Made by a program: the position numbers and the translations under genes
In this document: positions 24,860 through 28,872 of the stretch, one piece after another
Position numbering within the stretch: the first letter of the stretch is position 1
Layout: each line of letters begins with the position of its first letter
The notes under the pieces: model-generated
Database searches by the model: none
What the model saw: only the letters and a program-made list of their open reading frames with translations
Told to the model about the DNA's origin: nothing
Virus record (IMG/VR): IMGVR_UViG_2737471821_000012
Coordinates: 1 to 35,193 of that record
Direction: 5' to 3' (one strand)
Origin: a virus
Lineage: Duplodnaviria > Heunggongvirae > Uroviricota > Caudoviricetes
DNA: 35,193 nt

Positions 24860-25007
24860 GCTTCACTCCTGCTTTGGCTAGTCTGTAAACACCAACAAGG
24901 CGCTCTGCGAACGCCCTGTTATTTGCTGCGGCTACCACTAATCCCTCAGGTGAATCAGGGTGTCGAATCTCTTCTTTTTCCTGGTATTTCTTACGACGTT
25001 TTGTCAT
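24846..25007 (-). CDS. Small basic hypothetical protein (53 aa) between cII and the O-like gene
   Basis: Hand translation MTKRRKKYQEKEEIRHPDSPEGLVVAAANNRAFAERLVGVYRLAKAGVKHGRR; AGGAG 5 nt upstream of the ATG at 25007; overlaps the O-like start. Confidence 0.4.
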   Translation of the reverse strand: MTKRRKKYQEKEEIRHPDSPEGLVVAAANNRAFAERLVGVYRLAKAGVKHGRR

Positions 25008-25041
25008 AATGACTCCTGTGGATTGATCCAGTCTTTCTACA

Positions 25042-25320
25042 TCAGGCCTCGAAGAATTCGCCGTTCTTCGGGGCTTTTTCTTTTGTCAGCATTCTGGCTA
25101 CTTGCTTAGCCAGTTCCGCCAACTCCTCGTCTTCAACACCCCATTCAAGAACAGCAAGAAGCATTCCCATTTTGGGGATGAAGCTGTCTTTCCATCGCGA
25201 AATTTGCGATTCATTAATCCCTAACGCGTCGGCAACCTTTCGCTGACCACGTACAGCAATTCGATTCAGGATGTTGCTTGTAATTGCATTCGCTTTCTTG
25301 CGAGTACTTGTAAGTTGCAT
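25042..25320 (-). CDS. cII: CII transcriptional activator
   Basis: 92 aa; core SQISRWK...IPKMGMLLAVLEWGVEDEELAELAKQVA closely matches lambda CII as recalled. Confidence 0.9.
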   Translation of the reverse strand: MQLTSTRKKANAITSNILNRIAVRGQRKVADALGINESQISRWKDSFIPKMGMLLAVLEWGVEDEELAELAKQVARMLTKEKAPKNGEFFEA

Positions 25321-25378
25321 ATGTAAGTATTTCCTTAACTAATAAGAAGTTATGCGCATCAACTTATGCGCGTTGTAT

Positions 25379-25422
25379 TCCCGCATTTCGGCGGGAATGA
25401 GGACCATGACTGTTAAAGAGCG
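25379..25422 (-). promoter_or_regulatory. nutR (boxA plus boxB)
   Basis: On the minus strand, boxA CGCTCTTTAACA (plus 25411-25422) then boxB hairpin TTCCCGCCGAAATGCGGGAA (plus 25379-25398), between cro and cII. Confidence 0.6.
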
Positions 25423-25428
25423 GTGTTA

Positions 25429-25623
25429 CTATTTGTTTTTCTTGTTGCTTGGGAAAGGACGAACTTCCTCTCCAATCACACTGCCATCAGGCTTTACCGT
25501 AACCATAATGTTACGGCCTGCCAGAATGGCCTTACTGATAGCGCACTGGATTACACCAAAGTCACTGGCTGCTTTAGCCTGTCCATGGATTTTGGCGTAA
25601 TCGGCAAGTGTCATTCGAATCAT
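25429..25623 (-). CDS. cro: Cro repressor
   Basis: ORF 25429..25629; probable ATG at 25623 with GGAGAG upstream; sequence ...[45 protein letters not shown]...FPSNKK resembles lambda Cro as recalled. Confidence 0.85.
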
Positions 25624-25629
25624 ATGCAC

Positions 25630-25729
25630 TCTCCGTTATTAACCATGAACAAAGAATACCACAGGTATTCAAAGCAATCAATACTCAGGGTATTTTTAGT
25701 TTAAGTACCTTAGCTATTAGAATTAAGCT
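25630..25729. promoter_or_regulatory. Right operator/promoter region (OR) between divergent cro and cI
   Basis: Contains the 17-bp palindrome GAATACC-ACA-GGTATTC (25654-25670) and a related site AATACTCAGGGTATT (about 25679-25693); cI starts at 25730 with no evident Shine-Dalgarno, consistent with a leaderless transcript. Confidence 0.6.
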
Positions 25730-26446
25730 ATGGAAAATAAAAAATCACTGACGACAGAACAGCTCGAAGACGCTAAGCGGCTTAAGGCTTTGTATGAGTC
25801 AAAAAAGAAAGAATTGGGAATAACCCAATACTCAATCGCTGATGAACTGGGTATCACCCAAGGAGCGGTAGGGCATTATCTTAATGGCAGAAACGCGCTA
25901 AACGTTGAGGTCGCATCTGGTTTTGCACGTTTGTTGCAAGTCTCAATTGCTGATTTTAGCCAGTCAATTGCTGCCAAGGTTGCAGAACAGGCAGAAAGCC
26001 TTAAGAGCGATGCCAACGTAAGGTATGCAGGGGAATACAGAGCAGGAAAGAGGTATCCGGTGTTAAGCAGTATCCAGGCTGGCTCGTGGTGTGAAGCATG
26101 CGAACCATACACCATTAAAGACATAGATGTTTGGCTTGAGTCTGACGCGCATATTCAAGGTAATGCGTTCTGGCTTAAAGTGGAAGGTGATTCAATGACG
26201 GCACCGGTTGGGTTAAGCATTCCAGAGGGAACATTCGTTCTTTTCGATACCGGAAGGGAGGCGATCAACGGCAGCTTGGTCATAGCAAAACTTTCTGACT
26301 CTAACGAAGCAACATTCAAGAAGCTGATAATCGACGGCGGAAATAAATACCTCAAGGGACTTAATCCTGCATGGCCTCTCGTGCCAATCAATGGAAACTG
26401 CAAGATTATAGGCGTTGCAATTGAGACAAAACTAAGGCTGGTTTGA
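25730..26446 (+). CDS. cI: CI repressor (HTH N-terminal domain, S24 LexA-like autopeptidase C-terminal domain)
   Basis: 238 aa; HTH region (QYSIADELGITQGAVGHYLNG), GDSM catalytic Ser motif and downstream Lys; divergent from cro. Confidence 0.9.
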   Translation: MENKKSLTTEQLEDAKRLKALYESKKKELGITQYSIADELGITQGAVGHYLNGRNALNVEVASGFARLLQVSIADFSQSIAAKVAEQAESLKSDANVRYAGEYRAGKRYPVLSSIQAGSWCEACEPYTIKDIDVWLESDAHIQGNAFWLKVEGDSMTAPVGLSIPEGTFVLFDTGREAINGSLVIAKLSDSNEATFKKLIIDGGNKYLKGLNPAWPLVPINGNCKIIGVAIETKLRLV

Positions 26447-26463
26447 TCACGCAAGGGGCGATT

Positions 26464-26832
26464 ATGGTTGGAACCGCTATAGCAAGCTTTTTTGGGATGT
26501 TGGCAATCTCGACAATTTACGGCTTAGCGCATGCTTTTATTGCGAAATCTCTATCAGAAAAAATAAGCCAGGCTTGGGCGCATAGATCAGCTCGTTTCAT
26601 GATTCTGGTGATCATAGCAATACAAGGGATATCTGCATTTATCCTCTATGGATCAAGCTTATACCTATTGTATCAAGGCGCGACATTTACGCCTTACACC
26701 AGTGATTACGGAACTCTATACGATGGTAGTGAAGACATCACTGTGGCTTGGATCGTCTTTGGTTTATCTATGGCCGTGTCTGTTGTAGCAGACATCATTA
26801 AGGTAATTCTCGTCTTAACCTTCGCTGACTAA
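26464..26832 (+). CDS. Polytopic membrane protein co-transcribed with cI, unknown function
   Basis: ORF track 26443..26832 (TTG); likely ATG at 26464 with AAGGGG upstream, 17 nt after the cI stop; about three hydrophobic helices. Confidence 0.55.
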   Translation: MVGTAIASFFGMLAISTIYGLAHAFIAKSLSEKISQAWAHRSARFMILVIIAIQGISAFILYGSSLYLLYQGATFTPYTSDYGTLYDGSEDITVAWIVFGLSMAVSVVADIIKVILVLTFAD

Positions 26833-26961
26833 CCTATAATCCCGGCAGCAATAGCTATCGGGATCCACTTCACATATCCCGCATAAAAAGCACTGAACAA
26901 GCAGACACCGAAAAAATAAATATCCTTTGTATTCATTTGCTTATCATTATTTCATCAAAAA

Positions 26962-27005
26962 TAAATACCTTGGGTATTTACACAATAAAATACCTACAGT
27001 ATTCT
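26962..27005. promoter_or_regulatory. Left operator region (OL)
   Basis: Palindrome TAAATACC-TTG-GGTATTTA (26962-26980) and related site AAAATACCTACAGTATTCT (26987-27005), sharing the AATACC half-site with OR. Confidence 0.55.
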
Positions 27006-27050
27006 TTAGCCATCAGCAGGACGCTGGTAGCCAAACGGAACAGATTGGCA

Positions 27051-27092
27051 GGCTCTTTAACATTGATGGGATTGTCCCGCCGAAATGCGGGA
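27051..27092 (+). promoter_or_regulatory. nutL (boxA plus boxB)
   Basis: boxA GGCTCTTTAACA (27051-27062) then boxB hairpin TCCCGCCGAAATGCGGGA (27075-27092); the boxB RNA is identical to that of nutR. Confidence 0.6.
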
Positions 27093-27199
27093 ACCAAAGA
27101 GTAGTTGGCTTTGGGGTGACGTGAAGTGCAGCTGCACGACGGCAACCGGAAGATAAGCACCCGGCGCGTCACCGCCAAAGTCAATCATCGGAGGTCAAC

Positions 27200-27499
27200 A
27201 TGACAGTAGTCATTACATATCTGGCTGACGATAACGCCAGAAATCGCCGCAGAGCACGCAGACAGGCTCAACGTGAACAGGCAATGCAAGAGCAGCGACT
27301 GGCGCGAAAAATTGCGCTAAAGCTCTCTGGTTGCGTCAGAGCAGATAAAGCAGCATCACTCGGAAGCCTTCGCTGCAAGAAGGCAGAAGAAGTCGAGCGT
27401 AAACAGAATCGTATTTACTACCGCAAGCCACGCAGTGAAATGGGTGTGACTTGCTCAGGCCGCCAGAAAATGAAATTAGGCAGCAAACCACTTATTTGA
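27200..27499 (+). CDS. N: Antitermination protein N
   Basis: 99 aa; arginine-rich motif NARNRRRARRQAQ near the N-terminus; C-terminus RKQNRIYYRKPRSEMGVTCSGRQKMKLGSKPLI closely resembles lambda N as recalled. Confidence 0.85.
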   Translation: MTVVITYLADDNARNRRRARRQAQREQAMQEQRLARKIALKLSGCVRADKAASLGSLRCKKAEEVERKQNRIYYRKPRSEMGVTCSGRQKMKLGSKPLI

Positions 27500-27507
27500 G
27501 GTGAGAT

Positions 27508-27978
27508 ATGACAAAATCATGGAGCGTACCTTTTCCTGAATCAGAAACTGAACATGATGGAATGCCTGTTTTCTGGAGATTCCAGGCGACAGTTGAAGAA
27601 GATGGGATAAAAATATTCGCACTTCAATATATAGCTTTTCATCAGACAGAGCATTATGCATGGTTGGTTCCTGCGCATTGGATTGTTAATTTTAAACCAG
27701 CACCAAATCAGTGGTTACAGGAATGGAAACAAAGGAGAAATAGATATGCAATTAAGAAAGTAGCAAAAAATGCAGAAAGATCTTTTGCATTCCCAACGAA
27801 GAAACTTGCCATTGAGAGTTTATTGCGCCGGAAGAAATACCATTTAATGAGAATCAAACAAGATTTGGCTGTTGTATCAACTCTTGTTGATGGGATGAAG
27901 AATATTGATACATCAACACCAGATATTGAATATAACTTTGGACACAACCAAGAAACAGAAAATTGGGTATTCTACTAG
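27508..27978 (+). CDS. Hypothetical protein, AT-rich cargo gene immediately downstream of N
   Basis: 156-aa ORF 8 nt after the N stop; visibly AT-rich compared with flanking phage genes; followed by a terminator-like hairpin. Confidence 0.5.
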   Translation: MTKSWSVPFPESETEHDGMPVFWRFQATVEEDGIKIFALQYIAFHQTEHYAWLVPAHWIVNFKPAPNQWLQEWKQRRNRYAIKKVAKNAERSFAFPTKKLAIESLLRRKKYHLMRIKQDLAVVSTLVDGMKNIDTSTPDIEYNFGHNQETENWVFY

Positions 27979-28321: not shown

Positions 28322-28530
28322 TGTGCGAGTTTTATGAAGCAGATATCAAACGCCCAGAAATGGCAAGTGATGCGACATTACGTGATTACTTCGCTGCTAA
28401 GGCTATGGCAGCAATAGTGCGCAGATGGGACGGACATTCCTTTGGCGGTGGACAGAATTCACCACAGTACAAAGAATTAGCAGATGATGCCTACTTTATT
28501 GCTGATGCCATGCTCAAAGCTCGCGAATAA
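28318..28530 (+). CDS. Hypothetical protein
   Basis: 70-aa ORF translationally coupled to the upstream 98-aa ORF (ATGA overlap at 28318-28321). Confidence 0.5.
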
Positions 28531-28626
28531 GCACTGTGTATTCATTCCAACGAGTGAATACACGGAGCAATGTCGCTCGTAACTAAACAGGAGCCGACTT
28601 GTTCTGATTATTGGAAATCTTCTTTG

Positions 28627-28872
28627 CCCTCCATCACCGCCCCCGGTATCCCGCTCATGCTGGCGAACCCAGACACGCAGAGTCTCCGGCGTACAGCCAA
28701 TCTTTGGAGCAATGGAACAAATTGTCGCCCATTGTGAGTCATATTCGCTCTGACTTTCCAGAACCATACGGACTGCCCGTTGACGGACTTCGGGGGAAAA
28801 ACGAGTATTTTTAGTCATCCTGTTTACCTCTTTCTCAGGAAGTTTAGTCTCCAGGATTCCCGGGGCGGTTCA
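28627..28872 (-). mobile_element. Truncated IS3-family element (IS629/IS1203-like): left terminal repeat plus the first ~64 codons of orfA
   Basis: Minus strand reads TGAACCGCCCCGGGAATCCTGGAGACTAAACTTCCTGAGAAAGAGGTAAACAGG ATG ACT AAA AAT ACT...; ORF 28477..28818 begins [23 protein letters not shown]...[14 protein letters not shown] as in IS3-family OrfA (recalled), then diverges into unrelated sequence. Confidence 0.75.

Follow-up and report, generated by a model that had tools for sequence, protein, structure and literature searches.

The 35,193-nucleotide stretch studied here, called the window below, covers positions 1 to 35,193 of the IMG/VR virus record IMGVR_UViG_2737471821_000012 (Caudoviricetes). 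Its segment 25379-27092 very probably controls lysis and lysogeny as the early regulatory region of a temperate, P22-like coliphage with the HK620 immunity module, and works after the lambda paradigm. Judged from its sequence, the region is of the known and catalogued HK620 immunity type and does not represent a new one. Since it is nearly identical to an HK620 record annotated in 2001 and occurs in E. coli genomes, the description given here is a correct re-reading of a known immunity type. In addition, sequence comparison supports the antiterminator N as the partner of the boxB hairpin CCCGC-CGAAAU-GCGGG found at both nut sites, because the arginine-rich N terminus of N and boxB are replaced jointly in comparison with phage 21 and occur together in 76 of 77 evaluable contigs.

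Relationship to phage HK620

Between window positions 25300 and 27391, a part reaching from cII up to N codon 64, identity to coliphage HK620 (AC No. AF335538) is 99.2%, with 17 base differences over 2092 bp. The HK620 genome paper is that of Clark et al. (2001, J Mol Biol 311:657), as cited in the epsilon34 genome paper (PMC2629481). The GenBank record of 2001 already carries annotations of nutR, cro, pR, OR1-3, cI, hkaS, OL3-1, pL, nutL, N, and tR1 at the corresponding positions. Its features were mapped to the window by adding 23799 to the locus coordinates, which places the annotated nutR at 25377-25422 and the annotated nutL at 27051-27092. The limits drawn for this region in a preliminary description of the DNA, 25379-27092, coincide with this annotated interval from nutR to nutL (window 25377-27092).

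Cro is identical to that of HK620, and cI differs from its counterpart in one residue (T66A). The boxA, boxB, OR2, OR3, OL1, and OL2 sequences are identical as well. The single operator difference is base 25660 in OR1, which is C in the window and T in HK620 and shifts the site towards consensus. N diverges from HK620 N after codon 64: the C terminus coded in the window is of the lambda/phage 21 type (..GVTCSGRQKMKLGSKPLI), while HK620 has ..CSGSICLPNVAIYAAGYRKSKQLTAR. The comparison with catalogued lambdoid immunity types that the preliminary description had proposed thus ends at the HK620 type, annotated in GenBank since 2001. Its expectation of an immunity specificity other than that of lambda or P22 agrees with the identical Cro, the cI with one changed residue, and the operator half-site, which is AAATACC here and TATCACC in lambda.

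Over the full segment 25300-27550, identity of 97-99% was found to several other phages, including HZ41, vB_EcoP-611R6, HF4s, and mEpX2. The block from nutR to nutL is present in 146 of 5426 complete E. coli genomes (at least 80% coverage). The remainder of the window is a P22-like phage nearest to phage Huey and CUS-3, not to HK620. The gene order is that of lambda, with the early region in reverse order: cI (25730-26446) and N (27200-27499) are coded on the plus strand, cro (25623-25429) and cII (25320-25042), followed by replication genes, on the minus strand. The pR promoter is directed leftward from about 25681 and pL rightward from about 26977.

nut sites

The boxB 16-mer CCCGCCGAAATGCGGG (hairpin CCCGCCGAAAUGCGGG; as a 20-nt RNA UCCCGCCGAAAUGCGGGA) is present in exactly two copies in the window, both recognized by exact match and by fold. 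One is at 25380-25395 on the minus strand, inside the HK620 nutR, and the other at 27076-27091 on the plus strand, inside the HK620 nutL. In RNA sense, both the pR and the pL transcript carry the same CCCGC-CGAAAU-GCGGG. No further match was found in the 35-kb window with two mismatches allowed, where 0.03 would be expected by chance. The nutR copy folds into a C/G-rich stem of eight pairs with the 6-nt loop CGAAAU (-12.5 kcal/mol, z -3.9), the stem being lengthened to 25377-25398 by flanking U-A pairs. The nutL copy has a C/G-rich stem of six pairs and the same loop (-10.5 kcal/mol, z -3.1), and none of 200 shuffled sequences folded as well as either.

The boxA 11-mer GCTCTTTAACA is also present in exactly two copies in the window, at 25411-25421 (minus strand) and 27052-27062 (plus strand), preceded on the 5' side by C at nutR and by G at nutL. 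The nutR boxA with this base (CGCTCTTTAACA, 25411-25422, minus strand) follows the cro stop codon after 7 nt and precedes boxB by 15 nt. The nutL boxA (GGCTCTTTAACA, 27051-27062, plus strand) lies 13 nt before boxB and is identical, like the leader, to boxA-L of phage 21. With one mismatch, 0.81 matches to the 11-mer are expected by chance, so that boxA is not rare alone, and its specificity comes from the position 13-15 nt upstream of each boxB. The core is identical to the annotated boxA of phage 21, and from this annotation we take it to be the rrn/phage 21 form. Lambda has the shorter CGCTCTTA in place of this boxA, and its boxB is also different, as the one found here has a 6-nt loop and another stem.

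Both early transcripts therefore have the parts of a lambda-type N/nut module, which are an RNA-sense boxA ahead of a hairpin and a stable stem-loop with a purine-rich loop of 5-6 nt that is the same at nutL and nutR. The sites are positioned as in the annotated lambda and phage 21 records, with nutL between pL and N and nutR between cro and cII, before the first terminator. The preliminary description had recognized the identical hairpins and a boxA ahead of each of them, including the preceding C at nutR and G at nutL, and was right in all of this. A permissive Rfam search of 24900-27600 gave no match to a boxB or nut family, only a chance snoRNA match (E 0.29).

A second hairpin, GCGCAU-AAGUUG-AUGCGC, was recognized by sequence and fold at 25354-25371 on the minus strand, 8 nt downstream of the nutR boxB. 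It touches the annotated tR1 of HK620 (window 25371-25377) and has no U-run after it. The leader from nutR to cII folds as a whole better than shuffled sequence (z -3.1).

N protein and its proposed pairing with boxB

The N antiterminator, a small basic protein (99 aa, 27200-27499, plus strand), matches phrog_271, 'anti-termination protein N-like', with 6.8e-37, and lambda N of the antitermination complex 6gov is alignable to its C terminus (4.7e-05). The protein is a mosaic. Residues 1-64 are equal to HK620 N, and over residues 34-99 identity to phage 21 N is 95-100%, with 100% nt identity at 27299-27400. Residues 1-33 represent the HK620-type arginine-rich segment (..LADDNARNRRRARRQAQREQ..), which is predicted to bind RNA. 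In this segment, Ala stands at residue 28, where the aligned lambda N has its stacking Trp18.

Phage 21 shares with the window an alike nut layout, an identical pL leader with boxA, and the larger part of N. In a sliding comparison, identity to phage 21 was 90-100% over the pL leader and boxA (27004-27063), about 40% over boxB, 60-90% in the spacer from boxB to N, 25-65% over N codons 1-33, and 100% from codon 34. Exactly two islands are replaced within this otherwise common segment, namely the boxB hairpin, in both stem and loop sequence, and the arginine-rich N terminus of N (residues 1-33). The frame A-x-x-R-x-x-A-R-R of the two N termini aligns without gaps, and both boxB loops have six nucleotides in the format pyrimidine-tetraloop-pyrimidine, C-UAAC-C in phage 21 and C-GAAA-U here. 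The immunity genes and operators of the two are unrelated, as phage 21 has a P22-like Cro and operators of the ATTAAG..CTTAAT type. A structure of the phage 21 N peptide with its boxB is 1NYB (Cilley and Williamson 2003, as cited in PMC12550061).

Four N types were found with the common C terminus ..KPRSEMGVTC.GRQK.KLGSKPLI, each with its own N terminus and its own boxB. The HK620 type joins the N-terminal segment DDNARNRRRARR to boxB CCCGC-CGAAAU-GCGGG and the phage 21 type GTAKSRYKARR to CUCAAC-CUAACC-GUUGAG. In the P22 type, GNAKTRRHERRR goes with GCGCU-GACAA-AGCGC, and in the lambda type, MDAQTRRRERR goes with GCCCU-GAAGA-AGGGC. The N protein of H-19B was considered as a member of the same class and rejected, as it has a different arginine-rich segment (RSRRRER, 127 aa).

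The co-occurrence of N terminus and boxB was followed in IMG/VR from both sides. Exact boxB was present in 120 stretches, with 201 occurrences. Wherever a copy in nutL context had a readable downstream ORF, an N with the core A-[RK]-N-R-R-R-[AE]-[RK]-R follows; the central and C-terminal parts of N behind exact boxB vary and are of several unrelated types. From the other side, 80 loci were retrieved via the N terminus, of which three were cut by the contig end. In 76 of the remaining 77 evaluable contigs, the exact boxB precedes N at a distance of 124-578 nt. In 37 loci, no boxB was present within 300 nt upstream of N, and the wider search located it at 328-578 nt, because small genes are inserted there between nutL and N. 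Together with the joint replacement in comparison with phage 21 and the four matched pairs, this is the co-change of N terminus and boxB belonging to a lambda-type N/nut module. The preliminary description had proposed that N would pair with this particular boxB, and the comparison with phage 21, P22-type, and lambda-type N proteins of the same C terminus argues for it.

At least nine unrelated immunity modules were found between the same nut pair, with distances from nutR to nutL of 1152-2990 bp. N/nut specificity and immunity specificity are thus separate modules.

At least four C-terminal types stand behind the HK620-type N terminus in viral contigs. A small insertion between nutL and N is present in about 34 of the 80 contigs (L130-L208), where boxB is 328-578 nt instead of 124 nt upstream. 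Some of these insertions contain an extra boxA-like GCTCTT followed by a different hairpin, e.g., CCCCGTCTAATTGGCGGGG or CCCCTCAATTCGAGGGG. Five distant IMG/VR loci (L052, L018, L060, L099, and L106) have the exact boxB at nutL and a variant at nutR, GCUCCCAC-CGAAAU-GUCGGAGC or GCUCCCGC-CGAAAU-GCAGGAGC. Their N termini are slightly varied (SDNARNRRRAKR, SDTAKNRRRERR). In the nutR variants, the loop and its closing pair (C-CGAAAU-G) are kept, A-U replaces G-C in one stem pair, and there is a mismatch at the third pair. By sequence, a kept loop with a changing stem is the pattern expected of a loop-specific RNA hairpin.

Operators, promoters, and repressors

The palindrome AATACCNNNGGTATT (AATACC-N3-GGTATT) has six matches with at most two mismatches in 35 kb, and all of them are at OR or OL. 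They start at 25655, 25680, and 25704 (25655-25718) and at 26919, 26964, and 26989 (26919-27003), three in each operator region, so that the AATACC palindromes common to OR and OL in the preliminary description were found again. A half-site matrix built from OR1, OR2, OL1, and OL2 ranks 26918-26934 and 25703-25719 as the fifth and sixth best sites in the whole window.

The three OR sites correspond to the HK620 sites of the same names. OR1 (GAATACCACAGGTATTC, 25654-25670), recognized by motif and matrix, is a perfect palindrome. OR2 (CAATACTCAGGGTATTT, 25679-25695) is 25 bp from it centre-to-centre, and OR3 (AAGTACCTTAGCTATTA, 25703-25719), the weakest of the three, follows 24 bp from OR2, shortly before the cI start. 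With centres at 25662, 25687, and 25711, this is a tripartite OR of 17-bp pseudo-palindromes about 23-25 bp apart with divergent promoters. On the other side, OL2 (AAATACCTTGGGTATTT, 26963-26979) overlaps the -35 hexamer of pL, and OL1 (AAATACCTACAGTATTC, 26988-27004) overlaps its spacer and -10 hexamer; both are also annotated in HK620. The pL promoter (26977-27005, plus strand) has -35 TTTACA, a 17-nt spacer, and -10 TATTCT, reached 9/12 in the promoter scan, and corresponds to HK620 pL at window 26977-27012. The pR promoter (25646-25681, minus strand), with -35 TTGATT, a 17-nt spacer, and -10 TATTCT, shares bases with both OR1 and OR2. With 8 of 12 consensus bases it was not listed by the promoter scan, and it was therefore placed by homology to the HK620 annotation.

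At OR1, the C at 25660 stands where HK620 and 22 of 24 related viral contigs have T. It makes the site the perfect palindrome AATACC-ACA-GGTATT and, on the pR strand, gives TG at -15/-14 (TGG-TATTCT), an extended -10 motif. This variant could change pR strength and repressor affinity.

Two regulatory proteins of lambda type are coded next to these sites. Cro (64 aa, 25429-25623, minus strand) belongs to the lambda-Cro fold family (Pfam Cro 3.6e-26; lambda Cro 1cop 4.8e-19) and has the recognition helix Q-C-A-I-S-K, in which lambda Cro has Q-S-A-I-N-K. The cI repressor (238 aa, 25730-26446, plus strand) has a helix-turn-helix (HTH) and an S24 self-cleaving domain (Pfam HTH_3; Peptidase_S24 5.2e-24) and is alignable to lambda cI (3bdn) over the full length with 2.9e-52. 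The QAG cleavage site, the GDSMT serine, and the FKKL lysine are conserved in it, and its recognition helix is Q-G-A-V-G-H, in contrast to Q-S-G-V-G-A in lambda.

The consensus over the six sites is the half-site A-A-A-T-A-C-C, and lambda's twelve half-sites give T-A-T-C-A-C-C. The preliminary description had called the operators unlike those of lambda. This is correct for half-site positions 1, 3, and 4, but A2, A5, C6, and C7 are kept, as is the layout of 17-bp odd-symmetric operators with a tripartite OR (spacing 24 and 23 bp in lambda, 25 and 24 bp here). In the 'evolutionary code' of Cro (PMC6649833), Gln at H1 is paired with A2, Ala at H3 with A5, and Lys at H6 with C6. The helix Q-C-A-I-S-K has all three residues, and the predicted A2, A5, and C6 match the observed half-site. 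In lambda Cro, Ser contacts base pairs 4-5 and Asn base pair 3 (PMC6649833); these residues are changed to Cys and Ser, respectively, and the half-site differences from lambda include positions 3 and 4. Because the code pairings agree and the changed residues fit the changed positions, the palindromes are independently supported as probable Cro/cI sites. Their specificity is related to that of lambda, as a variant of this type.

Neighbouring genes

The first gene downstream of nutR is cII (25042-25320, minus strand), the activator of lysogeny establishment (Pfam Phage_CII 1.7e-42), which is at the same place in HK620 and differs from HK620 cII in two residues. Directly downstream of cI, in the place of rexA/rexB of lambda, there is a small hkaS-like gene (26464-26832, plus strand) for a predicted membrane protein of 122 aa. 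It corresponds to HK620 hkaS and phrog_6534 (function unknown, 2.4e-79), had no match in Pfam, and could be an exclusion function expressed from the prophage. The interval from the hkaS-like gene to OL holds a hydrophobic ORF of 34 aa (MNTKDIYFFGVCLFSAFYAGYVKWIPIAIAAGIIG, 26833-26937, minus strand) that is convergent with the cI operon. Only phage HF4s has it annotated ('putative phage protein'), it has no PHROG match, and its start overlaps the candidate third OL site at 26918-26934. In the pL operon downstream of N, a truncated fragment of an IS3-family transposase orfA was found at 28477-28818 (minus strand), with a Pfam HTH_Tnp_1 match (1.4e-07) over the first 59 residues only.

Discussion

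By homology to lambda and phage 21, the region would work as follows. Dimers of cI and Cro would bind the 17-bp pseudo-palindromes with half-site A-A-A-T-A-C-C, at three sites in OR, which separates the divergent promoters of pR and cI, and at two or three sites in OL over pL. Bound cI would hold the prophage silent, and RecA-stimulated self-cleavage of cI would relieve the repression. The pL and pR transcripts would then each bear a nut site, in which the hairpin CCCGC-CGAAAU-GCGGG follows boxA (GCUCUUUAACA). N is expected to bind the boxB loop with its arginine-rich N terminus and boxA to recruit NusB/NusE, while the phage-21-like remainder of N would contact NusA and RNA polymerase, with readthrough of downstream terminators as the result.

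Several points weigh against this reading. The HK620 record labels both nut sites 'putative', N is under the Pfam N_peptide cut-off (19.7 vs 27.9 bits), and one contig, L167, carries the HK620-type N terminus but no boxB within 3.5 kb upstream. No experiment on N at these nut sites or on HK620-type repressor binding was found in the searchable literature. In the operators, the published OL3 is unlike the other sites, and the better match at 26918-26934 has an unusual spacing of 45 bp. Conservation of the operators among the HK620-type loci carries little information, since these loci are alike to about 99%. For the loop of boxB, the energy model gives an open hexaloop with six unpaired bases and no closed GAAA tetraloop. 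If both hairpins were terminators, pause signals, or DNA-level protein sites instead of N-binding boxB, their stability and G/C-rich stems would fit, as would the position of the nutR copy beside HK620 tR1 and the second hairpin and the lack of binding data on N and boxB in that literature. However, no U-run follows either hairpin and the terminator scan lists neither, and terminators were rejected for the missing U-run. The loop is asymmetric, yet both copies are oriented for the same RNA sequence. A boxA of the same sense precedes at near-constant distance (slightly different at nutL and nutR) in about 200 occurrences, and the hairpins are inherited together with one particular arginine-rich N-terminal segment, all of which makes such a role highly improbable. 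It is less far-fetched, but still unlikely, that N and boxB are a functional pair of the lambda class, with cross-reaction of this N with lambda-type nut sites or of lambda N with these. The loop contains GAAA as do the GAAAA and GAAGA loops of lambda, and the N terminus shares the frame A-x-x-RRR-x-RR with lambda N. On the other hand, the loop has six nucleotides on a C-G pair and that of lambda five on U-A, the position of lambda Trp18 is Ala, and the two N termini were never found with each other's boxB in the loci examined, which were picked via boxB or the N terminus.

For N acting at its own boxB, the format of the loop, Y-NNNN-Y with a GNRA-like inner four, is common to C-GAAA-U here and C-UAAC-C in phage 21. 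In the phage 21 hexaloop CUAACC, a GNRA-like UAAC turn is flanked by a non-canonical C-C pair (PMC12550061), and this analogy makes a GAAA tetraloop with a closing C.U mismatch the most likely form of the boxB loop. The wording of the preliminary description, a GAAA-type loop on a C/G stem, was reasonable, as the stem is C/G-rich and GAAA is in the loop; the energy model, which leaves all six bases unpaired, does not reproduce the closed form. It is a serious possibility, although somewhat short of probable, that the HK620-type N terminus and boxB form a fourth, uncharacterised N-boxB class, with a C.U-closed GAAA tetraloop and an arginine-rich helix without the stacking Trp of lambda N, orthogonal to lambda, P22, and phage 21.

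The number of sites in OL, where OL1 and OL2 are clear, is also to be weighed. The annotated OL3 of HK620 (TTATCATTATTTCATCA, window 26941-26957) has a matrix score of -14.7, which is at background level. A candidate third site (AAATATCCTTTGTATTC, 26918-26934) scores 13.3, the top value among unassigned sites of the window, and is present in 23 of 24 related loci. That OL has only two functional repressor sites, with neither 26941-26957 nor 26918-26934 bound, is plausible, and yet we hold it for somewhat doubtful. It would agree with the background score of the published OL3, with a candidate score slightly above that of the best unrelated site in the window (11.0), and with a spacing of 45 bp between candidate and OL2 compared with 24-25 bp elsewhere. 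Phage 933W reportedly has only two OL sites. Against this, 10 of 12 core positions agree in the candidate, and its place directly beside OL is not a random one. Unusual operator properties of phage 933W are the subject of PMC3317979.

As a textbook-style lambdoid control region of the HK620 type, the segment has little weight as a discovery, because its annotation dates from 2001 and E. coli prophages commonly carry it. It is of modest value as a clean natural case of modular exchange, where one specificity of nut site and N terminus goes with at least nine immunity modules and with several C termini of N. In comparison with phage 21, the swap is limited to boxB and the first 33 codons of N, that is, about 30 nt of RNA and 33 codons. 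Since no biochemical characterisation of the HK620-type N-boxB pair or repressor-operator pair was found in the searchable literature, both would be easy targets for cataloguing orthogonal RNA-peptide or repressor-operator parts. If the N terminus and boxB do form a fourth class, they would provide an extra natural orthogonal peptide-RNA tether and a further data point on how specificity changes.

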